Part shown: positions 798-52,568 of the stretch, in pieces | How positions within the stretch are numbered: position 1 is the stretch's first letter | Layout of the letters: the number at the start of each line of letters is the position of its first letter | IMG/VR virus record: IMGVR_UViG_3300037189_010507 | Location: 26,572 to 90,571 of that record | DNA: 64,000 bases | Reading direction: 5' to 3' (one strand) | From: a virus | Translations under genes and position numbers: made by a program | The notes under the pieces: generated by a model | What the model saw: only the letters and a program-made list of their open reading frames with translations | What the model was told of the DNA's origin: nothing | Databases searched by the model: none

Positions 798-811
798 TTA
801 AAACTTTCTAC

Positions 812-1243: not shown

Positions 1244-1264
1244 TTTGTTTTCCTTTTTTTGTTG

Positions 1265-2124: not shown

Positions 2125-2125
2125 T

Positions 2126-2586: not shown

Positions 2587-2588
2587 TT

Positions 2589-2840: not shown

Positions 2841-2841
2841 T

Positions 2842-3531: not shown

Positions 3532-3850
3532 TTTGTTTTCCCAATTCTTTCAATGCTTCCTCATCCCAATGACTAGGAAGACTTCTTTCAATTTCGTAAG
3601 CGTAATCGTCAGCGTCTGAATTATCGAGATCCCAATAGATACAAACTTCTCCATACCTACCAAAATCATGATTGAACCATTTAATTTTAAATGATACACC
3701 TCTTGAATTGGCATCTGGAAACATTCTATAAAGCTGATTCACATACTCATCCATTTCCTTTTTAGCAAGAGCAGGGTAATTCAAATCTCCAATTTGAATA
3801 CAATCTTCTTCATAAGGAGTTGGACCAATTTCCATATATTCAATATTCAT
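3524..3850 (-). CDS. conserved phage hypothetical protein
   Basis: IGPTPYEEDCIQIG...HDFGRYGEV and LPSHWD motifs. Confidence 0.8.
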   Translation of the reverse strand: MNIEYMEIGPTPYEEDCIQIGDLNYPALAKKEMDEYVNQLYRMFPDANSRGVSFKIKWFNHDFGRYGEVCIYWDLDNSDADDYAYEIERSLPSHWDEEALKELGKQND

Positions 3851-34574: not shown

Positions 34575-37500
34575 TATGTAACCTTCCTTAATGTAAGAGA
34601 TTGACTTAAAGATTCGCCATACCCAAATTCTTGTGATATTACCCAATAATCTTGATTTGTAAGATCAAATGAATTAAATGATGTAATTCTAATTCTATCA
34701 CCTAATTGAATTTTTGGGACACACATTGTATTAATTGTTATAATTGGAACAGGATCGCTTACTTTTTCAATTATAAAATCAGCCAATTTTTGAGCATGCT
34801 CTTCTGATGTGATATAAGGACTTTCAATAGTTAATTCTTTCAAACCATACTTACGAATATTTTCAGAAAGTGAATCTTTTTTTTCAGTAATTTGAGCATT
34901 GTTTAAAGTCGCAATAATTGGATTTCCACGAATTTCAAAAGAAGATATAATATTTGTTCTTGGGTCTTCTCCCTGTACATATATGTGATTGTCATAATCA
35001 ACATTTGCCGATGCTGCGAAAATTAATCTAGATGTATAAGGACCACTTTCAAATTTAATTATATCAACAGTATTCGGCTCATCATAAACAATCCCGGTTG
35101 ATATAGGATACTTAACCGCAATTGCTGGTTTCTTATCATATGTAACTTCATATGATCTAGCTTCTCTTATTTTTGTATTAGCAGCAACATTGCCAAGAAT
35201 TGGAGTCCCGAATTTGCCTCTTTCCACATTTAAAAAATAATTATCAGATTTAGAACGATATCGAACAATTTCAGTTTGTCCAGCGCTAGTGAAAGCTAAA
35301 TACCCAACATTGGGAAATACTGGACTTGTCGTTGAGGAAACATGGATTCCATCATGCGATGATAATATTGGTGTTATTAATTTAACAACCCCAAGTGTTG
35401 TTTTGTCTTCTACTGCCCATAAAACTTCTGGGAAAAGTGCAACTTTTGTAACTGCTGATATCTTTACAACAACTTTATTTGTTTGCAATTGAACATTCAA
35501 ACTGCCATCGATAATATTTGTTGTATCGCTAAAGCTATATTGAATATTTGAATGTTGATCTATTGAAGATTCAAAAAATCTATTATAATGTTCGTACCTA
35601 GCAAACCCTTCTTCATCTATATAGAATCTTCCTAAATCAGCCAGTGTGATTTCATCAATAGCCCCTCGTAGATTTTCCTGTTCTGAATAGATATATGGAA
35701 AAATTTCAGTGTAAGCAATTTGTGAAGATATATATCTATTTTTAACTTCTTGTGATGTTAGACACTTTTTATATATTGCAAATTCATCAATAATCAATTC
35801 TCTTGTTGTTGATGGAGCTTGCTCTGCACCAGATGCAACATTGTAATAAGAACCCCTTCCGCCAACTGTAATATCAGATTGACTTAAGACAACATTCCCA
35901 TTTACTGTATCTGTATCTTTTAAATCACCATTTATATAATACGATAATAAATTACTTGCAGAATCGTAACTTACGAGGATATGGTAAAATTCAGATTGTA
36001 AAAGATCAGTTGTATCAGAAACAGATGCTGTTGTAATTGTTGGTCCTGTTGTTTTAATTTTAAAACCATGACTTGATGTATCATTATAATAAAATTCAAA
36101 ACCATTATTTGGATTATTATTAGCCCAGCAAGAAAGATATTCTCCATCACCAGTAGAAAAATGTCCATCATTAAATTTACATATTAATTCAATAGTAAAA
36201 TCTTCTTCTGTAACCGCAATTGATTCATGATTTGGAATTCTTATGTATGCACTATTTGTTAATAATATGCCAGTATTGTCGTTATCAGATACCAATCCAG
36301 TTGCATAACTCAATTGAGCATTACTATGAATAAAGGCATCATTTTGATGATGATTTAAAGCAATATTATTTATAGCGTATGTAGTTGGCACAATGCCAGT
36401 TAAATTTCTTGATCCAAGACCATCTCTTGCAACAACTGAACGGAATTGCGCTGCGTTCAGCAATGTTTTTGTTGAAGATATATAGGAATGCAAACTCATT
36501 GAAAAATTTGCATTTCCTGGACCATGGAAGAAATCGATTCTTATTTTATAAGGAACGCCAGCAGTTAAGTTTTGACTAATTGTTGTCAAAGATACAGATG
36601 AATTTTCCCCATAGGATTCAGCCAATAGAATATCGTCTATGTAAATACGACCTCCACCATTTGAAATATCAAGAATAAGACTTTGTGAGCCTGATGTTTT
36701 GGGGAAATAATACCCGTCTACGACTCCGTTAAAATACTTTGTATATGTAACAGAGTTTACATTTCCCAAGAATGAAAAATTAGACAAATTTAGAGCATTT
36801 GTATTTGAAACAGATATTTCTGTTGATATTCTAGTTGAATCTGGAACTGCATAGACAGCTTCTCCTTTTATTCTTTCTTCAACTGATATATTCTTTTCTA
36901 GAATATCTGCTTTTATTGTTTTATAGTCGGCTTCAAAACCTGGTCTCATGCCCCAGAATCTGCATCTTAATCCTGGATTAAGAGTTGTCAAGACTCCATT
37001 TTTATCAATAGCATCTTCACTAAAAGAATATCTGACAACACCGCCAAGTTGGGAAATCCCCTTACTGTACGGAAGATTATGTGAATAGTCTGCTTTTGGG
37101 AAGTTTCTTCTCAAAACAAGATTTTGGACAGCCTCACTCATTGTTTTGTTTTCAACTAGGAAACCATTTGTTAATTTTGTTTCAGATAAAAATTTTGACC
37201 AATCAGATCCTGTTACAGATACGGTCATATCACTAGTTGAGGTTGTCCATTCATCTACATAAAATGTACCCATAGATACATATTCATAGGGATCAAATTG
37301 AACAATAGAGCCAGCTGTATGAGCATTTGTGTCAGTTTGCTGAATTCCTCTTTCTGAGAGACTGATTGTATTAGTTGATGTTACAGCATTGCATAATATA
37401 ATTTCTCTATTTTCTTTATTTGGATTTAGTGTAACAATAAAATTATTATTTACTCCGCCAGTTGGAAAAATATCAGAATTAATAACGGACATGGTATTTG

Positions 37501-38488
37501 CAGAGTTGCTTAGATTTGATCTAAGAGTAGTTGTAGATACTGTATCGTTTGTTTTTTTAATTCTCCAACCAGTTGATATAGTCAACTTTAAATCTTTTTT
37601 CATATATTTACCATAAGTTGAAGATGTGTTAAAAACATTCCAATCTTTATTGGTATTATCAAGTTTTAATGTTAACTTAGGTGTTTGTGTACCACCTATT
37701 GGCAAGCTGCTTTCATGAATATCTCTAGCTCTTGAAATATTATAATCAATTACATAATCAGTTATATCTACTTCATATATTGGAGATATTTCATGTATTC
37801 TTGCACAATCTAATGCATTTTTTGTAGAAAGAATTGTTAATTCAATTCTTTTTGCTAAAAAGTTAGATGAAATAGCATTGTTGCTATTTAAATATATATC
37901 CTTATAATAATCATCATCTCCAAAAACAACAGTTTGATCAAGAAGGTCTATTAAAGAAGCGTCTTTGACTTTGATTCTAAAAGACTTTACCTGACCATAG
38001 AATTCAGATGTTGTTACTCTAATTTTGTTAACTTTTCTTTCTTCAAAAGCAACGGTTATAACTGGTGATGATGCAAAAACACCGTTTGCTTGACTTCTTG
38101 TTTTTGACCACCATCCAAACTCAAAATCACCGTCTAATTTATTATCTTCATCAAGAGTCGTTGGCATACAGTGCCAACTACCATCAGCAGTGATAATCTT
38201 CCCATTTTTATCTAAAGAGTCAGTTACTGCCCAAGTAAAAGATTCTCTTTCATATCCATTAATTATTTGTCTTTCTGAAAAGTAGTAGCCAACGGAGCCT
38301 TCAGATGTTACAACATGAGCATCCGTATTAGTAATATTTGCATTACCTATTAGAACATTTTCTAATACTAAATGACGACTATCAAGAAGATCTATAAGAA
38401 CTTTTGGCTTCACATTTTGAGCAGGAGATTGTATAGCATTATTAAAATTACTGGTCAGGGTTGTGCCATATATACTTTTTGTTAACAT
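34574..38488 (-). CDS. large minor tail/hub protein with PA14-like and LamG-like inserts
   Basis: 1304 aa downstream of the TMP; LTAGVPYKIRIDF (PA14-like); FTIE...YHI..SYD.....YINGD...IDEFAIY (LamG-like); SEEHAQKLA...IQLGDRI C-terminus. Confidence 0.8.
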   Translation of the reverse strand: MLTKSIYGTTLTSNFNNAIQSPAQNVKPKVLIDLLDSRHLVLENVLIGNANITNTDAHVVTSEGSVGYYFSERQIINGYERESFTWAVTDSLDKNGKIITADGSWHCMPTTLDEDNKLDGDFEFGWWSKTRSQANGVFASSPVITVAFEERKVNKIRVTTSEFYGQVKSFRIKVKDASLIDLLDQTVVFGDDDYYKDIYLNSNNAISSNFLAKRIELTILSTKNALDCARIHEISPIYEVDITDYVIDYNISRARDIHESSLPIGGTQTPKLTLKLDNTNKDWNVFNTSSTYGKYMKKDLKLTISTGWRIKKTNDTVSTTTLRSNLSNSANTMSVINSDIFPTGGVNNNFIVTLNPNKENREIILCNAVTSTNTISLSERGIQQTDTNAHTAGSIVQFDPYEYVSMGTFYVDEWTTSTSDMTVSVTGSDWSKFLSETKLTNGFLVENKTMSEAVQNLVLRRNFPKADYSHNLPYSKGISQLGGVVRYSFSEDAIDKNGVLTTLNPGLRCRFWGMRPGFEADYKTIKADILEKNISVEERIKGEAVYAVPDSTRISTEISVSNTNALNLSNFSFLGNVNSVTYTKYFNGVVDGYYFPKTSGSQSLILDISNGGGRIYIDDILLAESYGENSSVSLTTISQNLTAGVPYKIRIDFFHGPGNANFSMSLHSYISSTKTLLNAAQFRSVVARDGLGSRNLTGIVPTTYAINNIALNHHQNDAFIHSNAQLSYATGLVSDNDNTGILLTNSAYIRIPNHESIAVTEEDFTIELICKFNDGHFSTGDGEYLSCWANNNPNNGFEFYYNDTSSHGFKIKTTGPTITTASVSDTTDLLQSEFYHILVSYDSASNLLSYYINGDLKDTDTVNGNVVLSQSDITVGGRGSYYNVASGAEQAPSTTRELIIDEFAIYKKCLTSQEVKNRYISSQIAYTEIFPYIYSEQENLRGAIDEITLADLGRFYIDEEGFARYEHYNRFFESSIDQHSNIQYSFSDTTNIIDGSLNVQLQTNKVVVKISAVTKVALFPEVLWAVEDKTTLGVVKLITPILSSHDGIHVSSTTSPVFPNVGYLAFTSAGQTEIVRYRSKSDNYFLNVERGKFGTPILGNVAANTKIREARSYEVTYDKKPAIAVKYPISTGIVYDEPNTVDIIKFESGPYTSRLIFAASANVDYDNHIYVQGEDPRTNIISSFEIRGNPIIATLNNAQITEKKDSLSENIRKYGLKELTIESPYITSEEHAQKLADFIIEKVSDPVPIITINTMCVPKIQLGDRIRITSFNSFDLTNQDYWVISQEFGYGESLSQSLTLRKVT

Positions 38489-39477
38489 TAGACCTCTTCC
38501 AAACTTAAATTACACTCATACAAGTATACATCTTCTGAGATGTATCTTCTAGTCAAAGTTTCACTATAATCTCTTACAAATACTGTATATGTAGACTCCG
38601 TATAAGGGGTTGTCCCCGACTCATTTTGATTTATAATTTTTAACTCATGAGCATCTGGGTCTTCAGCAATTGAATGAAGAAAATCTCTTCCATGTCTTGA
38701 ATCAACAGTGTCATCCATTGCGTTTGGCAAATCCCTCCAAGCAATTGTGAATTGCCTCCTGCCCGAAGTTGATTCTCTTTTATAATATCTATTTTTTTTA
38801 TTATTCCAGTTAACTGTTTCAACAAAATTTGGAACTAAAGATATATCAAGTTTTCTTTGATGATTTGTTAAAGGCTTACCATCTAATATCAATAATGTTC
38901 TTATAGAGGTTTCATCAATATATGATGGAGAAAATCTAATTGGAGCATTTATAATTATTCTAGACTGTATAGAGACTTGTTGTCTCATGTAACTAATTAA
39001 TGTTGAATGAAAAGCAGTAATTGCAGTAATGTTAGATGATGCAGATGCTTTAGCAATCTTTTTTGATGCTGGAGTTACAGTTGTTGTAATATCAGCAAAT
39101 GCAAGGGCAGATGTAGTTTTTAAAGCAGATACTGATGTATCTAATGATATCGAAATGGATGATGAAGCATTCGTAGTCTTTTGTGAAGCTACAGAAACTG
39201 ATACTGTAGAGTGTATCAATGTAAGAACATTTAAAATTTGTAATGGAGTTGACTCACAAATTAACTGAATTTCAACTTCAGAAGAAACATTTGTTACCTT
39301 AGTAGCAGAAAATGAATTACTTGATTCAATTGAGATTGAAGATGAAACATTAATAATTTTTGTTGCAGATGCCGTAACTTCTGTATTAATAAAGGAATTA
39401 ATATGAATTATTTCAGCACCAATATAAAAATCGATGTCGCTAAGTTTTGGACCTATTTCATAATATTCTTCGGTCAT
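38488..39477 (-). CDS. distal-tail-like protein with N-terminal 20-aa repeats
   Basis: C-terminal ~140 aa paralogous to 39477..39896. Confidence 0.7.
   Translation of the reverse strand: MTEEYYEIGPKLSDIDFYIGAEIIHINSFINTEVTASATKIINVSSSISIESSNSFSATKVTNVSSEVEIQLICESTPLQILNVLTLIHSTVSVSVASQKTTNASSSISISLDTSVSALKTTSALAFADITTTVTPASKKIAKASASSNITAITAFHSTLISYMRQQVSIQSRIIINAPIRFSPSYIDETSIRTLLILDGKPLTNHQRKLDISLVPNFVETVNWNNKKNRYYKRESTSGRRQFTIAWRDLPNAMDDTVDSRHGRDFLHSIAEDPDAHELKIINQNESGTTPYTESTYTVFVRDYSETLTRRYISEDVYLYECNLSLEEV
38950..39369 (-). repeat. seven tandem 20-aa (60-nt) S/T/I-rich repeats
   Basis: SATKIINVSSSISIESSNSF / SATKVTNVSSEVEIQLICES / ... / ASQKTTNASSSISISLDTSV / SALKTTSALAFADITTTVTP ... 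Confidence 0.7.
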
Positions 39478-39896
39478 TATTGCTCACCAAGACCTATTGT
39501 AACATCATAGTAAGCACAAGCGTTACCAATATCCCTTCTAACCAATTTTTCTGTATAAGAATTAACAAAGCATACATAAGTTTCAAATTCATCCGTTGGT
39601 GACATTTTTATAGATATAGTTACTGTACCTCTAGTGTTGGATATGGAATTAAGGTAGTCTCTTCCTTTTCTGCCATCAACAGTTTTATCAACAGTATTTG
39701 GAAGATATGTAAAAGTTAGATTGAAGTCTTTTTTATTTTTTCTAATGTATCTTCTAATAACCCCCCTTCCTAGTTCAACATCCGCTCCTGATTGCAGAAT
39801 AGTCATTGAAAATTTTCTATTATGTTCTGTTATTTCTTCACCGTTGATTGTAATAAGGTGTGTTAAACCTGTTTGCTGATTCTGTATTGCTGGCAT
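39477..39896 (-). CDS. distal tail protein-like
   Basis: immediately after the TMP; LP..VDKTVDG motif. Confidence 0.7.
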   Translation of the reverse strand: MPAIQNQQTGLTHLITINGEEITEHNRKFSMTILQSGADVELGRGVIRRYIRKNKKDFNLTFTYLPNTVDKTVDGRKGRDYLNSISNTRGTVTISIKMSPTDEFETYVCFVNSYTEKLVRRDIGNACAYYDVTIGLGEQ

Positions 39897-42800
39897 TATA
39901 GACCTCTATTAATTCCTCTATAGGTTGAGATAGTCGTATTATTCAACCCAGCAGCCTTTTGGTTTTGCGGGGCTACATTAATATTATAGTCTTTCATCAT
40001 TGACTCAAACCACTGCTTTTCACCAATAAAGTTATCAACATAAATATGAACAGTTGAAGTAGAAGATGTTTGCGGCTGTACAGGGCCAGCATATGATGGA
40101 GATTTTGGAGTATTAAATCTCATATCGTTAATTGCTTGAAGGGCAGCAATTCCAAGATTTTTTACAGCATTAGAATTTACAACATATTCTCCACCGTGAA
40201 GCATTGCTGGAACGCCCTGTGAAGCAAACGCATTAACAAATCCACCATTTGCATAACCGCCAATTCGATCTCTAATATCAGATTTTGACTCCCCGGTTAC
40301 ACCTCTTGCGTTTTCCATAATTCTTCTTAACATTAAATGAGTTCTTCTTCTAACACCTAAATCCTTAAAAACATTTTCCGGATTTAATTCAGATATCCTA
40401 GATCCACTATAACGAGCCAGATGTGGACCTGGGTAAAAATCTATATCATTCAAGCTAGTAGGATAATGCTCTCCATACCAGCTAATGAATCTTATACGGG
40501 GGTCTAATTTTTCAAAAACTTCTTTCAATTTAATTACTAAAGCTTCAGAATGAACAGAAGTGCTTCCAGGATTGATTGCATCAATATTATTTGGAAGCAT
40601 TATGTCTGAGTACACATAGGACAGCATTTTCATTACATCGACTGCAGAGCCAATAGAGTTTCCTCTTTGCAGAATGCCAACATCAAGACTTCCGGCTCTT
40701 GGATCAATACTAAATTGAAAATTAGATGTATTACCAAAACTTCCATCCGAAAGCGGTTGCCAAGTCGTTATATCGTAATTAGTACCCCTTGAACCACTTA
40801 TATTCACATTTAAAATCATTTTATCTGTCAGTGCTTTTAATTCTTCTCTGCTTGATAAAACTCCTGCCATTCTTGCCATTCTAATTGATTTAGATATATC
40901 TATGTTTTTTAAAACTCTATCTCTCATTTCGGCTTTTATCTTTCGTTGGTTAATATAAGTTGTATATTTATACATATCAGTAGGAAGTTTTCTATTAACT
41001 ACTCTACCCGTATATAAAGCATCCATAAATCTATCAAGGTCTGAATACCCGTATAGATCAGGATGAGTTGGCGATGAGTATCTGTGACCACGTATATTTG
41101 CTAGACTAAGTGCATTTTCAATTTGTTCATCAGAAAAATTACGTCCAGATGAACGAGCTATGCGCCAGAAATCTTCTATTGGGAATGATGCTGCTCTGAA
41201 CGCTGAACTTGCAAGCCTCGGTGTTTTATAGTACATTTCACGAGCCATATTGCGGATTTCAGAACTGCGACTACGATCGCTAAGGATATCAAAGTATCCG
41301 TCTTTTACTTCACCAATTTTTCTGCTTAAACGCCATACATGATGAGAATCAGCAGAATCTGGGAATGTTTCTCTACGCAAAACATCTCCTGAGCCAGATG
41401 CTCTTGCACCAATTAGATTTAAAATTCTTCCAGTTTCTTGAGATAATGTTGGTCTCAAACCTGCTGGCATTGGAATTCCTGTTCCTGGGAAGAATTGTTC
41501 AACATTAGACGCTTCTTGAATTGTTTTTTGCAAATTTGAGACACCCTTTATTCCCTTGCCAGCACCACTCATATATCCAGAGTTAGGAGCAAAAATTGTG
41601 GTATTACCTGCCATTGAACCAAATGAAGAAAGCAACCAACCAAGACGGCTAAGACCACTTCTATTCTTGTCAGCTGCATTGTATGCAGCCATTACTCCAC
41701 CAGATGGAGTGAAATCCATTCCAACTCTAAGAGCGTTTGAAGCCTTTAATAAAGCGCGATTTCTAAATATAGATCCAACAGGCAATTCTTTATTACTATC
41801 ACCAGTTATATTAAAAAGACTTGCATCATTTGTTGCCTCTGTAAAACCTTTAAAAGTATCAGCATACGAACCACTTGTTCCTGTTCCTCTCCCATACATT
41901 GCGCCAAACATTTCTTTTTGTAATCTATTCTTAACCGCCCTAAATGGAGAAGTAACAGCAGAAGTGAATTTACCCCAAAGACCCTTTTTCTTCTTTTTCA
42001 CATCTTGAGTTGCATTATATGTAATTGTTTGAATATCAAAATCAGGTATGTAATCAGCCATTCTAAAACCAGCAGCAGATGGTGTCTTAGTGTTCTTTTG
42101 ACCTTTTACAAGACCGCCAGTTTCGTAACCTCTAATAAGACCACCATTAAATACTTCATCAAGTGGAATTCTATCTATTATACGGCTAGGAATTGGAGGA
42201 GGAAGAACTGATTGTGGTGATAAAGATTCATTACGAACAGTTCTCATTGTTCTCATAAAGATAGCACCAGCAGGTGATTGTAAGAAATGCTGGAAAGGCC
42301 AAGAAAGAAGGTTAAACGCATTTTGGTCTATGCCTGTTGATGATGCAGCCATTGTTGCCATCCATTGCATATCTCTCATATTTCTAGCGTTAGCGCTATA
42401 ATCTTCATATGCTTGTTGCCATTCATCTGCTGACTTTGGAACCCTTCCTGCTTTCTTTGCTTCTTTAGATGCTTGCAATAATGATTTTTCACCAGCCTTG
42501 ACTTTTGCTTTTGCTAAAATATCTTTTATTCTATTAAAATTGTTCAAAAATATTTCTCTATCTAACTCTGTTTGAAATAACTTTCCACCAGTTATCATTT
42601 CTGGAAATTCTATATTGTTTGGCCTCCAACTTGATAATGGAGGTGTCATAACTTGAACTGATGGATCTAGGAATTCCATCATTGCGCTAAGTCTGTCAGA
42701 AAGAGCATATGAATATTTTGAATAACTTCCATTAGTAACGGTAGTAACATTGTGCTTTTTAATTATATTCATATAAACAAAAGCTAAAAGTTTTGAAACA

Positions 42801-45800
42801 TCAGTTTGATTAAAATCAGCTAGAGAGAAAATACCACCGATATTAAGATTCCTTCCACCACCAGTACCACCATTTAAAACAGAAAAGTTAAATGAAGCAC
42901 TTGGGAATAAAGCATTTTCTGGTATAAAATCCATTTCATGTAAGCCTAAATATTTAGCATCTGATTGTTTAGTTGCTCTCCTCATAACAGTTATCAAATA
43001 GTTGCCAATACCATCAGCTGGATTAGCACTATAGGATTCAAAATTAACACCTATAGCCATATTCTCTGAAAAATTCCTTTGTAATTTTTCTAAATTTCCT
43101 TTCTTTAACATCTCATAGAGTTGCTGTCTAACATTCAAAGGAAATACATCAAATTCAGATGAAAGATTTGACATTTTAAATCCGCTATAATAACCAGTTC
43201 TTGATTTTTCAATTCTATCTTTTATACTTGCTATTCTTGAATCTCTAATAAATTTTATTCTTTGTTGTTGATTTATCTCATTTAATATAGCAAGATTTTC
43301 TGGTGTCGGATTTGCAATTCTATTCCCTGTGCCAAAAGAACCTCTTATATTTCTCTTAAAAGGAATTAGGCTTGAAGCTAAATCAAATGTTTTTTCTTTT
43401 ATTGAAATGCCAAGTTCGCTATAAGCTTTTTTTAATTCTGGGAAATTAAGACCAAATGCGTTGCCAATATCGCCAAGCACACTATCATCTCTTAAACTTT
43501 TTGGTTTTCCAAGTCTTTCTCCAAAATATTCAGCAGTCTTTGATTTATATTCAATTCCAAAAGGGCCTCCGTCTGCTTCTCTATAAAATTTCTTAGGTGT
43601 TGACTTAGGATTCTTAATTAATCTTTTAATATCAGTTATTTCATTACCAATTTTGACAGCTGTTGGATATTTTGCATTAATTTTATTTCTCAAATTGTAA
43701 TATGGATTCAACATTGTCTTATATATTGAACGAGGAAGTGAGAATTCTTGCGTATCAAGGTTCAAACCGGCTTCATAGGCATTACCAAAAAATCTTCTTA
43801 CTTTGTTACCACCATACAAGTCACCCCAGTTAGGCATAAACTCGCCTCTCCTAGCGAGATCAGCATCTCTATTTAAAAGACTTTGAACTTTCATTGCTTT
43901 TTGATGATAAAAATATTCAGGATAACTCATATCTTCAAGAAGACCACGTGAAGATGGGCGCATACCCCTTGTCTTTCTCATTAAAATAACTTTCTTTAAA
44001 TCTTGTAATTCTTTATATTGTTTATATAGTTTTGGATTCTTATTGAAAAAATTTGCCTTCTTAGCCCAGTATGCATCGGCTAGTGTTTCACGACCTGCTT
44101 TAGTAAATAATTGCGAAGTTGTTTTAAATCCTGATTGACTTCCTGTTTTAAACTTGCTAAGTCCAGATTTAATTCCAGATATTCCAACAACAGGGTCAAG
44201 AGCAAGTAGAGCCAACATATCTCCACCCATATTTGTTGCCATGTATGCACCAGAACCCTCTTTTGCAATTCCAGTCTTATCAAGACCATAATAAGCCAAC
44301 AAACCGCCTGGACTTAAAATAGTTCCTTTACCAAGAATTGACCTATTCTGAGAAGCCTCTTTCATCGCTCTTTCTGAGGCAGACATTGGTATGAAGCCAG
44401 CAAGACCGAATGGCCCTCTATCTAGCCCCATTAATTCTCTGTAGTCTTTTCCTGTTGTAACCATCTCCTTGGCAGCTTTTAATGTCTGACCCAAGGATGT
44501 TTGCATGAAAGGACTTGCAATCAGTTGGTTAAATAGACTTCCTTTAGCCTGTGACTCTCCAATACCAGCCTTGCCAAGAAGGGTTGAACCTAAAGCAACT
44601 GCAAACTCTGGAGCAAATGAAACGCCAGCAAGGAATGATGAAACACCAATCTTTGCTGTATTTGCAACGCCAGTGACAACTTTTCCTAATGTCTTATCCC
44701 AAAGAGAAACTTTTGCATTTTCCGGCTTATAAGCCAAATCACTAAATGGATTTAATACCTTTCTTTGATTAGCAACATTGTATCCACTTTCTTTCATCGC
44801 CTTTATTCTGGCTGATGTTTGATCCATCATTGCTTGATAGTTGTATTTGTAAATTCCTTCTTGATCAGCTTTTCTAAAATCTGCAGCTGAGGACAGTTTC
44901 TTTTTGCCCTTTACAAGACCGCCAATTGCGTAACTATCAAAATTAGTATTAAAATTATCAAAACCTTTTGGATCTGGTACTCTTACTGCACCAGTTCCTT
45001 TGCCCATTACCCATACTGAATTTTGGCTAAATGGCATTGTAATTTTGTTTAACTCTGTAGGCTTTTTAGTAAAGTATCTTAAGTAAGCATCTCTAGCTTG
45101 CCTGTTAATAAAAGCATTATTAGCAGAGCCAAAACTCTTTGGAGTTTTTGACATTTGACTCAATACGCTAAGTTCTTGATTAAAGTGCTCTGGTAGAGGG
45201 ATTTTATCTTTACCACTCATCTTTTGCCCTCTCATAAATGAATGTCCACCTGTACCGAGAGGAGGATTGTAAGCAGTGGCTCCAGCAGGGAAGTTCTTAT
45301 TACCTACAGCGTATTTTTTAATCCAGCCAAAAACAGCCATTCTATTTTTTACAACCATCTGCTGTAAGGCTGTTGCTAGATTTGCAGTTTTTGCAAAATG
45401 AGTACCACCATAATCATCCCATGCACCATCTTCAATGGCTAATCCACCACCCATCCAGCCATCTTTTGTTTTTACACGGTTTCTCCATTTAGGACCAATC
45501 CCCTTCCATGCATCTCCAGTTTCAGCAAAACCAATTGCATTCATGTAGGAACTAGATAGGCCTCCGTGTTTTTGTTGCCATACCCATTCTTTATATGCAG
45601 GATCATTAAATTCTTTTTCATCAAATCTTCTTGCGCCTTTAGGAACAATTCCACCAACAGCATATGGTTTAGGCTTGTATGTTCCTTGATTAATTTGTTG
45701 CATCATTCCCCATCCGTATTTCTTAACGGCTGAGTTTCTTACAACATATTCACCACCATGAAGAATTGCTGGGATACCTTGCTGAACTGGACCCTTTGTT

Positions 45801-48800
45801 GAACCACCCATTGCATATGGAATACCACCTTTATAATAACTAGATGGAGTTAAATTATAAGTACTATCATTTAGCAAATACTTTGTTTTATCAAGAACCA
45901 TTCTTGCAACCATTCTCGCTTTATTTGCAACAGTTCCAGACCTATTCCAACTATCATTTGTATTTTTAAACATAATGTCCAGATCACGAATTGATACATT
46001 TTCATTTGTTCTTCTTGGAAGGAAATATCCCAAAGTCTTTGACAAAAGAACACCTTGATCAGATTGAGGATATGCCCTCCTTCCTGCTGTTATAATTGCC
46101 GTTCTTAAAGAGACTGCATCTGTTGGAGTCGCAGTTACAGGAGTACTGCTTCCTGCCCTCATTCCAGCGTTATATAAGCCTGTACCAAGTGCTATTGACT
46201 CTTGGCGAGTAAGTGCCCTGCCCCCTGTTGCTCCCCCAAGACCGGGACCTGTTGCACCAGAAGTGTCTGCATTAGTGCCAGCCCCACCAGTAGAATCACC
46301 TGTATCAACAAGTGACTGATATTTCTTGTAGATTTCAAAAAGCTTCTTAAAAGATTCAGATTTAGTATCAATAACTGTTGTTAATGTATTTGTGAGTCCT
46401 TGATACTTTCTTGTTAAAGCATTAATGCTTGCATCAATTGTTTTATTCCATACACCATTTACACCAAATGGATTATTTTCAGTTAATACTCTGCCAATTG
46501 CTTCAAGCGAAGAAGTCAATGGGCCTGATGCGTTGACCCCAATCTGAGAGAGGGCACCGCCAAAAGAGTCCGAGAAGACAGTCCCCATGCTATTAGCAAT
46601 CGCTCTTGCTCCAATAAAGCCATTACCACCCTCAATAAGTTGGTTAAGCATTGTGTTGAATTCTTCGGCAGTCGTTGGAGGGAATTCTGTAATCTTCTTG
46701 GCAGCATCAGTAAATGACTTAATCATGTCATCAAAATACTTACTTGCTTCTTGCTTTGCTAACTTAATAGAATCAATTAAGTCTGCTCTATTTTGCTCAG
46801 CGACTTCTTTTGCTCTATCTTGATTAATGTCATTAATCTTTTCGGTATCTTGTGTTTCTTGTCTGGCTGCTTGATCTGCAATATTTCTTGCTTCATCAAT
46901 GTTTCCAGCGTATACAGCCATAGCATAACTGCGTCTGCTATTTATTCTATTAAGGGATCTTTCAGCCTCTGCTTCTCTTAATTTATTCTGATATTCTTGT
47001 TCTTTTGTTAATCTGCCCTCCGCCTTAGCAACATCTTCAATTTTCTTTATTTGTTCATCATAAATTGCAAGTGCAGATTCTTTTTGATTTTTTAGTACAT
47101 CTTGTATACTTTCAACAACACCTTGCATCGTGTCTTTAATACGATCTGCAATTTCTTGTTGAAGTTCTTTCTTTAAGCCCTTAAGAACAGCAGCAATCCT
47201 TTTTGCACCATCTTCTGCTCCATCTTCAAACCCTTGACCAGATTGATTAGCAATTGTTTCTTGAGCATCGTCTGCATCTACATCAACGCTATTTTCATCT
47301 TTACCGCCAAAGAGATCCAGTTTTCCTTTACTCTTTTTGACACCACCCTTAGCAAGTTTATCAACAGCGCCTTTTGCTTTTTCAACTCCAGAATCAATGC
47401 CTCTTTTAAGCGTGTCACCAGCTGAATTAACAGCATTTGCAACTGTTCTTACAGTGCCGACATATGCATCTCTAGCATTTTTTAAACCACCTAAAACAGC
47501 ACCACCTGCTGCTCCTAAGAATCTTCCAAGGATTGGTATTCTTTTAACTTGACCTAAAACCCATTCAACAAAGCCAAAAAATAAATCTGTTGCTTGTTCA
47601 ATACCCCATGCCCATGCTTTCATAAAAGCAGTTGGAATTTCAAAAATCAAATTAATAATTTGCTTAACAAGGAAACTCATTATTGTAATTCCAAGTTTTA
47701 CAACGCCTCCAAAGACATTAGCAAAAGCTGCTGCTAATGCTTTTAGGGCATCACCCCATTTTCCTTGAAAAATATTAACAACAAATTTAACAAGATTAAC
47801 AATTCCATAAAGATATGGTTGAATTATATTTTCTACCAAAAACTTAAAAACATTTGCAACAAATTCAAGAATTTTTGTTAATCCATTAAAAGCACTTCCA
47901 AGACCGCCAATAGCGCCTTCTGCGCCATCTGCGCCACTACCGAAGGAACTAAACAGATCGACAATGGGTCTGATTAAAGATTCAAATGTTGTTTTTAATG
48001 TACCAAGAACTTTTTTAATAGTTGCAAACCCAGAAGCGCCAGATTGCTTGAACTTATCCATGTTTTTCATAACAAGCGTTATTGCAACGCCAAGTGAAAG
48101 AATTATAATGCCTATACCAGATGCTATAAGAGTTATCTTAGTAAGTTTAATTGCATTATTGACTAATCCAAATGATTTTGCAAAACCGCCAACACTTGCT
48201 TGCATTCTTGCAAAAGCACCGGGTCCTGTACCAGTAAAAGCTAGAGTTTCAATTCGTAATAATCTTTGTGCTTCTTTTGCTCCTAATAATCCTTTTTGAT
48301 ACATCCCAACAGCAGCAGTTGGAGCACCTTTAATTGCAGAAAGGCTACTTGTTAATGCAGAAGATGATCTAGCACCAATTGTGTCATATGCTTGAAGAGC
48401 TCTACCTCTTATACCACCACCAGCAATTGAGAGCGCTCTTTCTTCTGAGATTTCTCTTCCGAGTCTCATAATTCTTCCACCGCCAAGAGATGAAGATGGA
48501 GATGTTCTTGTTATTCCAGTTCTTTCAAAGGCTTGCTGTCTAAGGTTAATTGCTTCACCAACATCAGCTGCTGATATTGATCTAAAGCCAGTTCTTCTTC
48601 CACGAAGACCAAATCTTTGTTCAATGTTATATCGTGTACCAGAAGCACCAGATCTTCTTAAACCCATTTGCTCCATTGAAAACTCTTCTTCTGCGAATGC
48701 TTTACGAGCAGCAGAAGGGATTCTTGCGGTAGGGTCTAGGGGATCAATAATGCCAGCAGATGTTCTGACGAGTCTTCTTAGTCTAGCAGCAGGAGTTGCC

Positions 48801-51187
48801 CCACCACTAAGCATTGGGTCAAGAGTAGGGTCTCCAGATAATGCTCCCCTCACAGTCTTTTGAGACATTACTTCGCTTACTAAAGGAAGAGGAGCAGTTG
48901 TTGTCTTTTGAAGAACGCCTGTCATCTCTCCAAGTTTTTTAGCCATATTTGAGACTGGCCCATCACCACTTGATAATGTTGCAATAAATGTTGCAAATTT
49001 ACCATTGGTATTTACAACAGTATCACCCATAACAGTTATTGGTTTTGTTAATTTAAGAAGACCATCTCTTGCTGCAAGGGATTCAATCGTCATTGTTTTA
49101 AGTCCTGGCAGGAAGCCAAATAAAACTTTTCCAATGCTACCCATTGCCAGTCTAAACTGACCAAATACAAAAATCAACGGACCAATTGCAGCAGTTGCTC
49201 CTGCGCCTATGAGAGCCATTGTGGAAATTAACTTTTTAGTTCTATCATCAAGACTGGACCATTTTTCAATAAGAGTCGTTGAAATGTCTGAAATTTTTTC
49301 TATTGCTGGTTTTATGCTTGTTAGAATGTCGGAAGCAAAGGCTTTAAAGTTATTTTTTAGAATAGAAATTTGTGTATCAAGTGCACTCAAAGACACCTCT
49401 AATTCTCTTTGAGCAACTTCAGAAGCATTAGCCGCTCCAGCAAGTTGGATAAACATTGCTCTGCCAGCTTCTGTTGCTACTGAGCCAATTAAGTCAACTT
49501 GGTCTTCTCTTTGTGCTTTTACAATTTCGTCAGTAACTTTTTTTCTAACTTCTTTTGCAGCATTAATTTGTGATTGAGTTACTTTACCCTGCATTCCTTC
49601 AACATCTTGACCAGCCTGTGCAGTTGCAATTCTTGCAATAATACCAATATCTTTAAAACTTTGAATAACTGGGAGGTTAGCATTTTTGGCTCTATTAGCT
49701 GCAAATACCGCAGTGTTTGCATAGCCTTGCAATCTTTTTTCCGCACTCTCTGTTGCGGGGATAGTTTCATTCTTTAATAATTTGTCAAAAGCTGCTAATT
49801 GAGCAATTGCAACTTCCATTCTTGGACCTTGACGAACGCCAAAAACTTTTGCAAAGAATTCCATTGCGCCTTCTTGACCAGCAGCACTGTCTTTTAATTC
49901 ATTAAAAGAATCAATAAGGCTTTGAATTGCATCAAGACCAGTACCCTTGACTTCTGTAAAACTCGTTCCATACTGCTTTGCTAATGATTTAAACATCTCA
50001 GCATTTTGCTTAGTTGGTGCTGTTAGTCTTTGAAGTGAAACTTTAATTGAGTTAGCAGACGCTCCAACTTCAAAACCAGCAGATTTCATAGGAGCAAGCA
50101 ATGCTGCTGCTTCAGTCATTGATAAGCCGAATGATGTGGCAGCAGCAGCAACTTCTGGGAATGCATCACCAAGATCTTTAAGTGTTAAAGCCGTTACGTT
50201 TTCAACAGAGTTGAATAAGTTTAATTGTGCAGTAGCTGCTTTAATTCCTGCAAGTTCTCTTGCTTCAACTGTTGGAAATAGTCTGCCAGATTGCTGGAAT
50301 GCTCTTTGTGCTTGGAAGTAAAGGCTCTGTACCAGATCTTTAGCATTGCCAATATCCATATTACCAAGCTTTTCTGTCTTGGCTGTTAGTTCTGTAATTT
50401 CTTCAATATTCTTAGTTACTTGAATACCAAGTTCTGCAAAGTCTCCAGCAAGTCCAACTGTTAAGCTTTTTGATACACCATAGGTTCTACTGATCTTAGT
50501 TAAACCTTCATCAAGTCTATTATAATTATTAACTAATTTATTAACACTATCAACTTGTTTCTCTGTTGCGTTATTTAAATCAACACCAATTTTTTTAGCA
50601 GCAGCATCTGCAGTTGGAGCAACTGTTTCAAGAACCTTAGTTAATCTAACAAATTCTCTATCTATTGCGACAAGAGATTGTAAACCAAATCTTGAAAACC
50701 CCATGATCGGTGTTGTAAGACCAATAATAAGGCTTCGACCTACGAACTGAGCGTCTTTACCAAGTCTCTTTTGCTCTTGTGAAAGTGATTTAAGATCCTC
50801 AACTAAAGCGCGAACTCTAATACTCTTTAATGATTCTTCATAAGCTTTTAAATCTCTAACAGCAATTTGTCTAAATTCAGAAGATGCTCCTGACGCAAAT
50901 TTATAAGATGTTCCTAACCCAGAAATTTCTTTTCTTACTCTAGAAAATTCATTAGTAAGAATTGCATTGTTTCTTGCAACTTCAGAAATAGTTTTTGCAT
51001 GATTTTTTAAAGATGAATCTGAGGAACCTATGGCAGATGATAGAGCACGACTTCTTGCTTCAAGGTTTTTAATTGGGTTTGTAGCGCCAACAATAGCCCT
51101 GTTTAATTGATTCATGGCATTGCTTAAGTTGTAGACTTTCTCTACACCTTGAACGGCTATGCCTAATACAATATCTACATCACTCAT
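39896..51187 (-). CDS. giant tape measure protein with internal cargo modules, including an Rpf-like transglycosylase
   Basis: follows the TAC pair; TP901-like core (AG.SIKVSL.RL.AP); amphipathic repeats; PAxLHGGEYVV motif twice. Confidence 0.93.
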   Translation of the reverse strand: MSDVDIVLGIAVQGVEKVYNLSNAMNQLNRAIVGATNPIKNLEARSRALSSAIGSSDSSLKNHAKTISEVARNNAILTNEFSRVRKEISGLGTSYKFASGASSEFRQIAVRDLKAYEESLKSIRVRALVEDLKSLSQEQKRLGKDAQFVGRSLIIGLTTPIMGFSRFGLQSLVAIDREFVRLTKVLETVAPTADAAAKKIGVDLNNATEKQVDSVNKLVNNYNRLDEGLTKISRTYGVSKSLTVGLAGDFAELGIQVTKNIEEITELTAKTEKLGNMDIGNAKDLVQSLYFQAQRAFQQSGRLFPTVEARELAGIKAATAQLNLFNSVENVTALTLKDLGDAFPEVAAAATSFGLSMTEAAALLAPMKSAGFEVGASANSIKVSLQRLTAPTKQNAEMFKSLAKQYGTSFTEVKGTGLDAIQSLIDSFNELKDSAAGQEGAMEFFAKVFGVRQGPRMEVAIAQLAAFDKLLKNETIPATESAEKRLQGYANTAVFAANRAKNANLPVIQSFKDIGIIARIATAQAGQDVEGMQGKVTQSQINAAKEVRKKVTDEIVKAQREDQVDLIGSVATEAGRAMFIQLAGAANASEVAQRELEVSLSALDTQISILKNNFKAFASDILTSIKPAIEKISDISTTLIEKWSSLDDRTKKLISTMALIGAGATAAIGPLIFVFGQFRLAMGSIGKVLFGFLPGLKTMTIESLAARDGLLKLTKPITVMGDTVVNTNGKFATFIATLSSGDGPVSNMAKKLGEMTGVLQKTTTAPLPLVSEVMSQKTVRGALSGDPTLDPMLSGGATPAARLRRLVRTSAGIIDPLDPTARIPSAARKAFAEEEFSMEQMGLRRSGASGTRYNIEQRFGLRGRRTGFRSISAADVGEAINLRQQAFERTGITRTSPSSSLGGGRIMRLGREISEERALSIAGGGIRGRALQAYDTIGARSSSALTSSLSAIKGAPTAAVGMYQKGLLGAKEAQRLLRIETLAFTGTGPGAFARMQASVGGFAKSFGLVNNAIKLTKITLIASGIGIIILSLGVAITLVMKNMDKFKQSGASGFATIKKVLGTLKTTFESLIRPIVDLFSSFGSGADGAEGAIGGLGSAFNGLTKILEFVANVFKFLVENIIQPYLYGIVNLVKFVVNIFQGKWGDALKALAAAFANVFGGVVKLGITIMSFLVKQIINLIFEIPTAFMKAWAWGIEQATDLFFGFVEWVLGQVKRIPILGRFLGAAGGAVLGGLKNARDAYVGTVRTVANAVNSAGDTLKRGIDSGVEKAKGAVDKLAKGGVKKSKGKLDLFGGKDENSVDVDADDAQETIANQSGQGFEDGAEDGAKRIAAVLKGLKKELQQEIADRIKDTMQGVVESIQDVLKNQKESALAIYDEQIKKIEDVAKAEGRLTKEQEYQNKLREAEAERSLNRINSRRSYAMAVYAGNIDEARNIADQAARQETQDTEKINDINQDRAKEVAEQNRADLIDSIKLAKQEASKYFDDMIKSFTDAAKKITEFPPTTAEEFNTMLNQLIEGGNGFIGARAIANSMGTVFSDSFGGALSQIGVNASGPLTSSLEAIGRVLTENNPFGVNGVWNKTIDASINALTRKYQGLTNTLTTVIDTKSESFKKLFEIYKKYQSLVDTGDSTGGAGTNADTSGATGPGLGGATGGRALTRQESIALGTGLYNAGMRAGSSTPVTATPTDAVSLRTAIITAGRRAYPQSDQGVLLSKTLGYFLPRRTNENVSIRDLDIMFKNTNDSWNRSGTVANKARMVARMVLDKTKYLLNDSTYNLTPSSYYKGGIPYAMGGSTKGPVQQGIPAILHGGEYVVRNSAVKKYGWGMMQQINQGTYKPKPYAVGGIVPKGARRFDEKEFNDPAYKEWVWQQKHGGLSSSYMNAIGFAETGDAWKGIGPKWRNRVKTKDGWMGGGLAIEDGAWDDYGGTHFAKTANLATALQQMVVKNRMAVFGWIKKYAVGNKNFPAGATAYNPPLGTGGHSFMRGQKMSGKDKIPLPEHFNQELSVLSQMSKTPKSFGSANNAFINRQARDAYLRYFTKKPTELNKITMPFSQNSVWVMGKGTGAVRVPDPKGFDNFNTNFDSYAIGGLVKGKKKLSSAADFRKADQEGIYKYNYQAMMDQTSARIKAMKESGYNVANQRKVLNPFSDLAYKPENAKVSLWDKTLGKVVTGVANTAKIGVSSFLAGVSFAPEFAVALGSTLLGKAGIGESQAKGSLFNQLIASPFMQTSLGQTLKAAKEMVTTGKDYRELMGLDRGPFGLAGFIPMSASERAMKEASQNRSILGKGTILSPGGLLAYYGLDKTGIAKEGSGAYMATNMGGDMLALLALDPVVGISGIKSGLSKFKTGSQSGFKTTSQLFTKAGRETLADAYWAKKANFFNKNPKLYKQYKELQDLKKVILMRKTRGMRPSSRGLLEDMSYPEYFYHQKAMKVQSLLNRDADLARRGEFMPNWGDLYGGNKVRRFFGNAYEAGLNLDTQEFSLPRSIYKTMLNPYYNLRNKINAKYPTAVKIGNEITDIKRLIKNPKSTPKKFYREADGGPFGIEYKSKTAEYFGERLGKPKSLRDDSVLGDIGNAFGLNFPELKKAYSELGISIKEKTFDLASSLIPFKRNIRGSFGTGNRIANPTPENLAILNEINQQQRIKFIRDSRIASIKDRIEKSRTGYYSGFKMSNLSSEFDVFPLNVRQQLYEMLKKGNLEKLQRNFSENMAIGVNFESYSANPADGIGNYLITVMRRATKQSDAKYLGLHEMDFIPENALFPSASFNFSVLNGGTGGGRNLNIGGIFSLADFNQTDVSKLLAFVYMNIIKKHNVTTVTNGSYSKYSYALSDRLSAMMEFLDPSVQVMTPPLSSWRPNNIEFPEMITGGKLFQTELDREIFLNNFNRIKDILAKAKVKAGEKSLLQASKEAKKAGRVPKSADEWQQAYEDYSANARNMRDMQWMATMAASSTGIDQNAFNLLSWPFQHFLQSPAGAIFMRTMRTVRNESLSPQSVLPPPIPSRIIDRIPLDEVFNGGLIRGYETGGLVKGQKNTKTPSAAGFRMADYIPDFDIQTITYNATQDVKKKKKGLWGKFTSAVTSPFRAVKNRLQKEMFGAMYGRGTGTSGSYADTFKGFTEATNDASLFNITGDSNKELPVGSIFRNRALLKASNALRVGMDFTPSGGVMAAYNAADKNRSGLSRLGWLLSSFGSMAGNTTIFAPNSGYMSGAGKGIKGVSNLQKTIQEASNVEQFFPGTGIPMPAGLRPTLSQETGRILNLIGARASGSGDVLRRETFPDSADSHHVWRLSRKIGEVKDGYFDILSDRSRSSEIRNMAREMYYKTPRLASSAFRAASFPIEDFWRIARSSGRNFSDEQIENALSLANIRGHRYSSPTHPDLYGYSDLDRFMDALYTGRVVNRKLPTDMYKYTTYINQRKIKAEMRDRVLKNIDISKSIRMARMAGVLSSREELKALTDKMILNVNISGSRGTNYDITTWQPLSDGSFGNTSNFQFSIDPRAGSLDVGILQRGNSIGSAVDVMKMLSYVYSDIMLPNNIDAINPGSTSVHSEALVIKLKEVFEKLDPRIRFISWYGEHYPTSLNDIDFYPGPHLARYSGSRISELNPENVFKDLGVRRRTHLMLRRIMENARGVTGESKSDIRDRIGGYANGGFVNAFASQGVPAMLHGGEYVVNSNAVKNLGIAALQAINDMRFNTPKSPSYAGPVQPQTSSTSTVHIYVDNFIGEKQWFESMMKDYNINVAPQNQKAAGLNNTTISTYRGINRGL

Positions 51188-51204
51188 CAATTAGTACCTA
51201 TCAA

Positions 51205-51238: not shown

Positions 51239-51577
51239 TTATTGAGAGAATTCAAAGCCAAGACCGATTGGAATATCAACAATATTGTCTTTAGTAATTG
51301 AATTATCATCTACAGGATTCTGGTCATACCAATCATCATCAAAATCAACCTCTCCACCAAATGCAACAGCAGATGCTTTAATTGTCTTTGAATATTCATT
51401 ACCGCATGCACGATATAAAAGGAAAAGTTCATGTAGGAGCAAGGAGTCTTCTAATTCTTCTAGATTCTTCCAAGCCCCTATCTGAACAAAAACTTCTGAT
51501 TCATACTTCAGTAAGGGAAGATCATCCCATGCGATTGGCTCACCAGAACCTGCTGACCCTCCCTCTACAGGTTTGGG
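51239..51577 (-). CDS. frameshift extension of the tail assembly chaperone (gpGT-like)
   Basis: the -1 frame is open from the slippery site through PVEGG...WKNLEELEDSLLLHEL into track ORF 51239..51442. Confidence 0.85.
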   Translation of the reverse strand, partial: PKPVEGGSAGSGEPIAWDDLPLLKYESEVFVQIGAWKNLEELEDSLLLHELFLLYRACGNEYSKTIKASAVAFGGEVDFDDDWYDQNPVDDNSITKDNIVDIPIGLGFEFSQ

Positions 51578-51876
51578 TCGCCACCCATAGCGACTGCCAT
51601 GAGTTCTTGGAATGAACGAAGATCAAGTGCGTCTTCCAATGCATCTTCATCAGCAGCCAACTCTGGGTCTACCTTCTTAAGAGCAATCTTTGCCGCAGCA
51701 ACCATCTTGTCAATGTCCTCATCGGTCATTGCACCTTCATCTGTTGCTTTCATATCATTTGCAACCTTCATGAATTCTCTGAGTGAACGGATTGTGAGGG
51801 GCTTAATTGTTCGCACCTTGCCATCAGCAAACACGATATCTGTTCCCTTGTACATATCCACATTCTTATTAGCCAT
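51565..51876 (-). CDS. tail assembly chaperone (gpG-like)
   Basis: between major tail protein and TMP; IKPLTIRSLREFM; start refined to MANKNV. Confidence 0.88.
   Translation of the reverse strand: MANKNVDMYKGTDIVFADGKVRTIKPLTIRSLREFMKVANDMKATDEGAMTDEDIDKMVAAAKIALKKVDPELAADEDALEDALDLRSFQELMAVAMGGDPNL
51571..51577 (-). promoter_or_regulatory. -1 programmed frameshift slippery heptamer C CCA AAC
   Basis: XXXYYYZ heptamer in the correct frame, one codon before the TAC stop. Confidence 0.85.
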
Positions 51877-51974
51877 TTTAAATGAACCATCCTTTTGTCT
51901 ATAAATAGGGAAAATCCCCTGTGCAATATAATACCACACAGAGGATTGACCCAAGTACTAAAGATTAGTGTTTT

Positions 51975-52568
51975 TTATGTCTGATCGATGATCTTACCGT
52001 ATTCGTAACCAGTATCGTCAGATGCTGGAAGTACACGGAATGAAACTGCAAAGACGGATGCCTCTGCTCTCTTCATGCTGATTGTTGATGATTCCATTGA
52101 GATTGCTCTCTTTGTTCTGAACTTACGTGTCTTCGTTGTTGATGCGTCAGAGCCAGGTGCATTACCTTCAATCTGAACAGCCTTCTCGAATGGGTACACG
52201 CTCTGTCCACCAAACTTGAATGTTCTAGTGCTTGCACCGTCAAGTGTGTTAACGATGTCTGCTCCCTCAGAATCACTGTTTGCGATTGTAGTGTTGTAGC
52301 TCCATGCGATTGCAAGGTTTCTCAAAGTGCCTTCGGCCATGGTTGTCTTAACCATAACCTTAACTCTTGACTGAATAACCTTAGCAGCGTCACCGAATTG
52401 GTCGACTTCAATATCAACCATATCTGGCTGCCAAGAAATTTCTACACCACCTTGGGTGTAGCCAACATCAGTAAGAGCGTCAAAGTCGGTTCCTGTCATT
52501 GTCAAGTTGGAAGCACCAACTTTAACAACTGCTTCACCGACCACAATATTTGCTGCGTTTGTTGCCAT
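51975..52568 (-). CDS. major tail (tube) protein
   Basis: NIVVG, DVGYTQGGV, VDQ and T.MAE.TL.NL motifs; AGGAG SD; highly biased codons. Confidence 0.88.
   Translation of the reverse strand: MATNAANIVVGEAVVKVGASNLTMTGTDFDALTDVGYTQGGVEISWQPDMVDIEVDQFGDAAKVIQSRVKVMVKTTMAEGTLRNLAIAWSYNTTIANSDSEGADIVNTLDGASTRTFKFGGQSVYPFEKAVQIEGNAPGSDASTTKTRKFRTKRAISMESSTISMKRAEASVFAVSFRVLPASDDTGYEYGKIIDQT

Follow-up and report, generated by a model that had tools for sequence, protein, structure and literature searches.

Tape measure proteins (TMPs) are generally regarded as rulers that bear a small muralytic motif at most. A 2003 report by Pedulla is said to concern such motifs embedded in the TMPs of Barnyard and TM4. 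Muralytic motifs in actinophage TMPs include the Rpf-like motif 1 of Barnyard and motif 3 of TM4 (Piuri & Hatfull 2006, PMC1796659), the latter being dispensable and aiding the infection of stationary cells (PMC1796659). Here we describe a TMP gene in a 64,000-nucleotide window of the viral contig IMGVR_UViG_3300037189_010507 (positions 26,572 to 90,571 of the record; coordinates below are those of this window unless another contig is named). The last third of the 3,764-residue protein is an array of accessory modules that lies between two copies of an end-unit and is exchanged at short reiterated joints. In about half of the informative TMPs of this freshwater lineage, 0.9–2.8 thousand extra residues are present, mostly in unknown domains.

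Short motifs that demarcate payloads are familiar from the polymorphic toxins, namely VENN in CdiA and PxxxxDPxGL in Rhs. Polyvalent proteins sometimes include a lysozyme and a zincin peptidase (PMC5512222). TMP-embedded muralytic domains, junction-motif-bounded payloads of contact-dependent inhibition (CDI) and Rhs systems, and polyvalent proteins are already known, as is, by one account, protein mosaicism in phage structural genes (PMC10684548).

Architecture of the tape measure protein

The open reading frame (ORF) 39896–51190 on the minus strand is open throughout its 3,764 codons, and its sequence predicts the TMP of an uncultured freshwater siphophage. PhageMin_Tail (PF10145) matched residues 232–451 with 58.4 bits (Pfam cut-off 33.2), TIGR01760 matched with 57.1 bits (NCBIfam cut-off 28.8), and nine PHROG TMP families matched over a span from residue 1 to about 1400. 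The NCBIfam search of the TMP returned nothing beyond the core. The initial annotation of this DNA, made from the letters alone, had reported a long ORF with a TMP core; both were confirmed, with its coordinates correct to within one base. Three hydrophobic, transmembrane-like segments (residues 654–679, 1013–1045 and 1151–1186) were located in the core only.

The motif Y..GG occurs at residues 1785, 1792, 1843, 2087, 3022 and 3646, six sites against about 1.0 expected from composition, and all six fall beyond the core. The string LHGGEYVV is present twice (residues 1810 and 3664), in each case as part of a unit of the form YxxGG ... PA[IM]LHGGEYVV (residues 1792–1817 and 3646–3671), so the repeated motif and the recurring end-unit described from the letters are real. 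End-unit A is 84–96% identical among relatives and 52% identical to end-unit B. Core identity to the TMPs of relatives ranged from 57 to 98%, and end-unit B together with the C-tail was 75–100% identical in relatives with cores at 57% identity.

A 58-residue end-unit query matched TMPs of cultured Gordonia, Rhodococcus, Vibrio, Streptomyces and Mycobacterium phages, and it was the only TMP-derived query that reached cultured phages in INPHARED. Nucleotide and protein searches of the same collection gave no match to the gene or to the last 2,000 residues. The end-unit is thus a signature of TMPs in general. With a unit B profile, the TMP of mycobacteriophage Douge (gp16, PDB 8zdo) was matched twice, at 964–1021 and 1412–1470, and the TMP of Gordonia phage GMA4 (L097, KR053199.1 10768–16050) contains two YxxGG...GEFV units and an SLT domain. 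In GMA4 the SLT domain precedes the last YDQGG, which is the grammar of the window TMP on a small scale, and the second unit is directly followed by G-x-D-C-S-G (resembling NlpC/P60 on visual inspection only). Tandem repeats near the end-unit were seen in two other TMPs, namely NVPAFGS in about six copies at the C-terminus of L021 and GFAxGGYMTTP in three copies at residues 2388–2420 of L031.

Each module is opened by a joint of the form [YF]xxGG, often doubled as NGGxIxx[YF]xxGG. The 25/28 DNA match that had been noticed between the M2 and M3 joints includes an exact run of 15 nt, and a repeat search extended it to 37 nt at 86% (42093–42129 vs 44898–44934). A second DNA repeat, 43 nt at 84%, is found in the two LHGGE units (40177–40219 vs 45739–45781). 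The remaining joints encode YxxGG with different codons, so the joint motif is kept at the peptide level and not merely as DNA. Among 49 non-redundant TMPs, [YFW]xxGG was found 166 times from the first end-unit onward against 36 expected (4.6-fold enriched) and was depleted in the cores (34 vs 52 expected).

Gly-Gly sites are common protease targets. The YxxGG joints could accordingly be maturation-protease or self-cleavage sites of a polyprotein, whose modules would come apart inside the virion or once ejected and would then work as individual injected proteins. Proteolytic processing is known for lambda gpH, as PMC1796659 reports in citing Tsui & Hendrix 1983, metallopeptidases have been proposed to process polyvalent proteins (Iyer et al., PMC5512222), and the relative L016 carries a HELGH metzincin as its last cargo module. 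However, in TMPs without cargo (1,800–2,400 residues) the motif stands one to three times, often two to three in tandem, directly ahead of the single end-unit. Cleavage at the joints is less likely because in these proteins there is nothing to release. The tandem repeats of 9–11 residues in L031 and L087 look structural, unlike cleavage sites, and Pfam detected no peptidase in the window TMP or in most cargo-bearing relatives. We consider a polyprotein improbable.

Relatives differ in the number of modules

Relatives were taken from 15 viral contigs and 80 metagenome contigs. Their loci were extracted with 10-kb flanks, where many metagenome TMPs end, so that their lengths are lower bounds. 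In close relatives the TMP ranged from 2,034 to at least 3,831 residues, with a constant layout of core, unit A, n modules, unit B and C-tail. The number of modules was zero in L014, in which the two end-units are directly adjacent, one in L011 and L013, two in L004, L005, L012 and L016, and three in the window, L002 and L003. The initial annotation had proposed an alignment of related TMPs and had named colinearity as refuting its reading; the relatives are not colinear, and a conserved core is followed by modules that vary in number (0–3) and type and are bounded at YxxGG. P0004 (3,574 residues) and L052 have three LHGGE end-units with cargo between every pair, and the end-unit can therefore be reiterated more than once. 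Across 52 informative TMPs, the distance from the core end to the last unit was bimodal, with 192–366 residues in 25 and 898–2,804 residues in the 27 (about half) that carry extra cargo.

The window comes from a metagenomic IMG/VR contig (90.6 kb, completeness rated 87%) and the gene has internal direct repeats, as would be the case if the long ORF were an assembly chimera or a collapsed repeat. However, the same architecture, with varied module sets, recurs on contigs that are independent of one another and come from different samples, more than 25 in all, and a colinear relative of 3,781 residues as well as proteins in an independent protein collection were found. An assembly artefact was rejected on account of the many independent contigs and is extremely improbable.

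Four other TMP ORFs of at least 3,450 residues (L056, L090, L034 and L084) have one end-unit, and the C-terminal block of their core lies about 2,800–3,070 residues into the sampled part of the ORF. In L056 and L090, about 2,300 residues between the N- and C-terminal parts of the core are unassigned; these point either to a ruler that is truly very long or to an insertion site of a different kind.

Module exchange at the joints

In three independent pairs of genomes, six boundaries of DNA identity coincide with joints. The window and L003 are 94.6% identical from 49352 to 45648, and the YAVGG codons that open M1 occupy 45650–45664. Essentially no similarity remains over M1 and M2, which have been replaced, and identity resumes at 42172, just upstream of the YETGG joint, at 85.9% and reaches 95.2% across the downstream tail genes. 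In the comparison with L002, M2 is 92.5% identical over 44929–42061, from the YAIGG joint to ...SAAGFRMAD of the next joint, within a DNA background of 77–78% on either side. Read codon by codon, the DNA is unrelated before A-I-G-G and then up to 99% identical, and at the other end it is 99–100% identical through NGGLIRGYETGGLVKGQKNTKTPSAA.FR and then about 50% identical. In the third pair, L011 has one extra module compared with L014 (706 residues, 2.1 kb), whose ends are NGGxIxxYxxGG repeats. DNA identity is 95% to the left and to the right of this module, and the TMP cores are 93–100% identical as protein.

The cassettes are thus polymorphic between near-identical genomes, with breakpoints at the joints. 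Crossover from one reiterated joint to another would give rise to just this pattern. The reading of the joints as recombination sites and of the modules as polymorphic cargo is well supported by these alignments, and the earlier proposal that YxxGG units act as recombination joints is borne out by the six boundaries. The linker between core and unit A (45839–46270, residues ~1640–1784) is itself mosaic, with 10–17% identity to L002 and 87–93% to L003; the core flanking it is about 75% identical to L002.

Cargo modules

M1 is a predicted Rpf-like lytic transglycosylase. Transglycosylas (PF06737) matched M1 of the window weakly (21.3 bits vs cut-off 27, E 4e-4) and matched the cargo of four relatives with a best E of 1.7e-7. 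A profile of six M1 modules, from the window and five relatives, matched the RpfB (4emn) and RpfC structures at E 7e-4, and the catalytic Glu fell into alignment; this residue, Glu48, is invariant in all six modules, which align with the pattern GGG-L ... W..YGG ... QQM-V-NR. M1 would therefore be of the known muralytic kind of TMP insert, like the Rpf-like motif 1 of Barnyard (PMC1796659), and it hints at a Gram-positive, perhaps actinobacterial, host.

M2 and M3 had been described as non-repetitive, which does not hold. They are paralogous (hhalign probability 96.8%, E 2e-10), sharing a start with GGLVKG, a Lys-rich stretch and SAA.FR.AD, and an end formed by an alpha domain of about 170 residues (module-wise BLAST E 4e-6). 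Self-BLAST of the entire TMP gave no off-diagonal matches; module-wise BLAST showed them. Twelve instances of the alpha domain were collected, all with an invariant GSxSxxS.

Neither M2 nor M3 matched any entry of Pfam, PHROG or NCBIfam or any PDB sequence, and the M2/M3 module profile gave nothing at E <= 5 against PDB sequences. An exhaustive HMMER search with M3 of 1.84 billion representatives yielded five clusters, four of which are TMPs of 2,961–3,781 residues, while the fifth is a 721-residue piece continuing into the same C-tail. No free-standing M2 homologue of 514–1,637 residues was found, and no prophage copy of the C-tail was present in 185,579 species genomes. An antisense ORF of 150 residues inside M3 (41556–42008, plus strand), which is without supporting evidence, is probably spurious.

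The AlphaFold2 (AF2) model of full M3 had a mean predicted local distance difference test (pLDDT) score of 44, with low-confidence helices below 50 in the first ~267 residues, and was left out of the fold search. The alignments supplied for structure prediction did not include P0004, P0005 and P0006. The alpha domain alone was modelled with pLDDT 74 and a predicted template modelling (pTM) score of 0.76, as four strands, a helix, a strand and a helix. The 50 best chains of a VIA wide structure search were almost all of the GNAT fold (Z 4.7–6.4); the best match was 5i0c (Z 6.4, root mean square deviation 2.5 over 88 residues), which is middling. Foldseek of the model against PDB and BFVD gave nothing at E <= 1e-3, and a scatter of RNase-H-like and metallo-beta-lactamase rows was dismissed as noise. 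Pfam acetyltransferase models did not match the alpha domains at E <= 1.

Motif A of GNAT enzymes binds the pyrophosphate of acetyl-CoA. This motif (Q/R-x-x-G-x-G/A, beta4-alpha3 loop) was not conserved in alignments of 9 and 13 sequences, and the invariant GSxSxxS was placed at the beta5-alpha4 loop. A canonical GNAT acetyltransferase was rejected because motif A is absent, and since the Z score is also middling we call the alpha domains GNAT-like in predicted fold only. As modelled, M2 and M3 would each join a basic adaptor region of poor order to a domain with a GNAT-like fold. The globular look that the initial annotation ascribed to the modules therefore holds for the terminal alpha/beta domain and not for the first ~267 residues of M3. 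The modules are also not plain coiled coil, M1 being Rpf-like and M2 and M3 each ending in an alpha/beta domain.

Other cargo was found in the relatives. The last cargo module of L016 (L016:9867–11099, TMP residues 3289–3699) is a metzincin-type zinc peptidase with the motif HELGHTIGLYH (Reprolysin_4, 30 bits vs cut-off 22), the only peptidase among 21 cargo regions. The most widespread payload of the wider family is a His/Glu-rich beta domain of about 500 residues (L012:6354–7835, L011:10787–12283 and eight others, alignment A8). It had no Pfam match and nothing at E <= 5 among PDB sequences. Its invariant motifs (LVHE, R...HFA.NH.V.GH, ANPG and VD.W.TP) suggest a candidate metal-dependent enzyme. 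A further payload type is the 'gamma' block.

Composition and selection

All three modules of the window are basic, as first described (isoelectric points 9.7–9.8), and aromatic residues rise from 6% in the core to 10–13% in the cargo. Ratios of nonsynonymous to synonymous substitution rates (dN/dS; Nei–Gojobori) were 0.15–0.17 for the core (window vs L003 and vs L002) and 0.07 for the C-tail (vs L002), compared with 0.51 for M2 (vs L002), 0.92 for M3 (vs L003) and 1.27 for the alpha3 domain (vs L003). Protein evolution is thus far faster in the cargo than in the scaffold, which fits diversifying selection on host-interaction modules.

The modules could instead be mainly extra or tolerated tape, extended in the tube of a tail of ~560 nm (the full 3,764 residues at 0.15 nm per residue), so that gain and loss would amount to length variation. 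The dN/dS values near 1 and the large portions of M3 predicted as low-confidence helices are in line with this. In TM4, removal of an embedded muralytic motif shortened the tail from 200 to 180 nm, as predicted (PMC1796659), and the cargo modules may therefore lengthen the tail too; the core-only tail length against which the initial annotation had wished to compare is not the default expectation, since embedded motifs count toward length in TM4 (PMC1796659). Very long tails are also plausible in the group because L056 and L090 have single-unit TMPs of at least 3,460 residues with long cores. However, the cargo contains what appear to be real domains (Rpf-like with an invariant Glu, GNAT-like with GSxSxxS, and the metzincin of L016), and its composition shifts from that of the core. 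Invariant motifs across paralogues of ~25% identity likewise argue that the domains are functional. We therefore think it unlikely that the modules are mainly tape; a contribution to length is compatible with delivery, and both can be true.

Genomic setting

The features are listed in Table 1. The TMP gene sits between the gene for an immunoglobulin (Ig)-type major tail protein and the tail-tip genes, an order that is the same in relatives, and the three tail-tip genes (139, 329 and 1,304 residues) are kept in all relatives irrespective of cargo. The flanking genes fit a siphophage tail module as judged from their sequences. An immunity-gene-linked toxin system was rejected, as the downstream genes are conserved tail genes. 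The TMP has no cysteine in its 3,764 residues.

Table 1 Features of the TMP locus in the window.
Feature	Position	Strand	TMP residues	Description
Tail-tip genes, downstream	34574..39896	-		139, 329 and 1,304 aa; 1,304-aa product with minor-tail matches
TMP gene	39896..51190	-	1-3764	single ORF, TTG start
End-unit copy B and C-tail	39899..40255	-	3646-3764	YANGG...PAMLHGGEYVV...NFIGEKQWFESMMK...GINRGL
Module M3	40256..42127	-	3022-3645	624 aa; joint FNGGLIRGYETGGLVKGQKNTKTPSAAGFRMAD at 42053-42151
alpha3, predicted GNAT-like domain of M3	40298-40789	-
Module M2	42128..44932	-	2087-3021	935 aa; joint YAIGGLVKGKKKLSSAADFRKAD at 44864-44932
alpha2, predicted GNAT-like domain of M2	42458-42961	-
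Module M1	44933..45664	-	1843-2086	predicted Rpf-like lytic transglycosylase; opening YAVGG at 45650-45664
Predicted catalytic core of M1	~45338-45478
End-unit copy A	45665..45838	-	1785-1842	YYKGGIPYAMGG...PAILHGGEYVV...INQGTYKPKP
TMP core	45839..51190	-	1-1784	includes PhageMin_Tail domain
Tail genes, upstream	51565..52568	-		129-aa ORF in usual chaperone position and 197-aa Ig-domain major tail-like protein

Discussion

We favour an accessory-module array in which the joints and the flanking end-units serve as recombination sites. Whole modules are gained, lost or replaced in frame, and the essential C-terminal plug is left intact. The Douge TMP has its last 42 residues bound inside the lumen of the baseplate hub, and expulsion of the TMP upon hub opening has been proposed (PMC13033339). 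By this analogy, end-unit B with the C-tail is the presumed hub plug and would dock in the tail-tip hub; the cargo would therefore be near the tip and leave first on TMP expulsion. M1 would cut peptidoglycan after expulsion, an activity shown for motif 3 of TM4 (PMC1796659), and the role of M2 and M3 would be that of dispensable accessory or host-interaction factors that evolve fast.

Several points weigh against this account. Breakpoints also occur inside modules, about 180–300 residues in, where there is no YxxGG and the adaptor meets an alpha, beta or gamma payload; because of this recombination inside modules, the joints are preferred and not sole crossover points. M2 and M3 are confined to this one TMP lineage and do not come from a general effector pool. 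The dN/dS near 1 fits relaxed constraint equally well; with the essential C-tail further along the gene, the frame would stay open even then. The resemblance of the alpha domain to GNAT folds is middling (Z 6.4), and acetyl-CoA motif A lacks conservation. The presence of cargo in the virion and its ejection is what we infer by analogy.

A bolder version of the array is a modular injection chassis, from which cassettes would be released at [YF]xxGG and delivered before the DNA as fast-evolving host-takeover or anti-defence enzymes. The GNAT-like domains would then modify the host envelope or a cytoplasmic target, and the TMP would be a tail-lumen counterpart of polymorphic toxins. No recognisable toxin, anti-defence or processing-peptidase Pfam domain was detected in the window TMP, and we regard this version as tentative and rather doubtful. 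The label 'exchangeable effectors' in the initial annotation overstates the evidence, as M1 appears to be a known muralytic insert and M2 and M3 one paralogous family.

The empty site of L014, set against the filled sites of L011, the window and others, offers a concrete rule for where a TMP can take up foreign domains and still assemble. Natural isogenic pairs are also available for asking whether globular inserts count toward tail length. The GNAT-like alpha and the His/Glu-rich beta domains represent domain families restricted to TMPs. The literature searched held no description of duplicated end-units bracketing multi-module in-frame cargo, of joint-bounded cassette exchange or of TMP-restricted domain families.

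The closest likeness is to the actinophage TMPs of Barnyard and TM4, in which a peptidoglycan hydrolase domain is placed inside the C-terminal part of a siphophage TMP, and to the TMPs of GMA4 and Douge, which have two end-units each. The window TMP differs from these in that its cargo comprises about 1,800 residues in three modules (up to about 2,800 residues in relatives), is mostly non-muralytic and is bounded by reiterated joints, and in that gain, loss and swapping of cassettes can be demonstrated between near-identical genomes.

The TMP family combines a conserved scaffold and variable payloads with a conserved junction motif, the features by which polymorphic toxins and polyvalent proteins are recognised. 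As in CdiA and Rhs, a conserved delivery scaffold bears a variable payload, and a short junction peptide doubles as the recombination point. However, the payloads of CdiA and Rhs are C-terminal, whereas those of the window TMP are internal and followed by a conserved plug, and no immunity gene follows the TMP gene, downstream of which lie conserved tail genes. Polyvalent proteins resemble it as giant polypeptides with several unrelated domains and a proposed delivery with the DNA (Iyer et al. 2017, PMC5512222). They are thought to be packaged in the head, their description never uses the term 'tape measure' (PMC5512222), and Pfam detected none of their signature domains in the window TMP. In extracellular contractile injection systems (eCIS) such as AlgoCIS, protein cargo lies in the tube lumen beside the TMP and is expelled on firing (bioRxiv 10.64898/2026.05.27.728243). 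Their cargo consists of separate polypeptides loaded by means of an N-terminal signal and an AAA+ ATPase, whereas that of the window is fused in frame into the TMP itself. If the modules are indeed injected effectors, the tail lumen would join heads, the type VI secretion system (T6SS) and eCIS as a route of polymorphic protein delivery.

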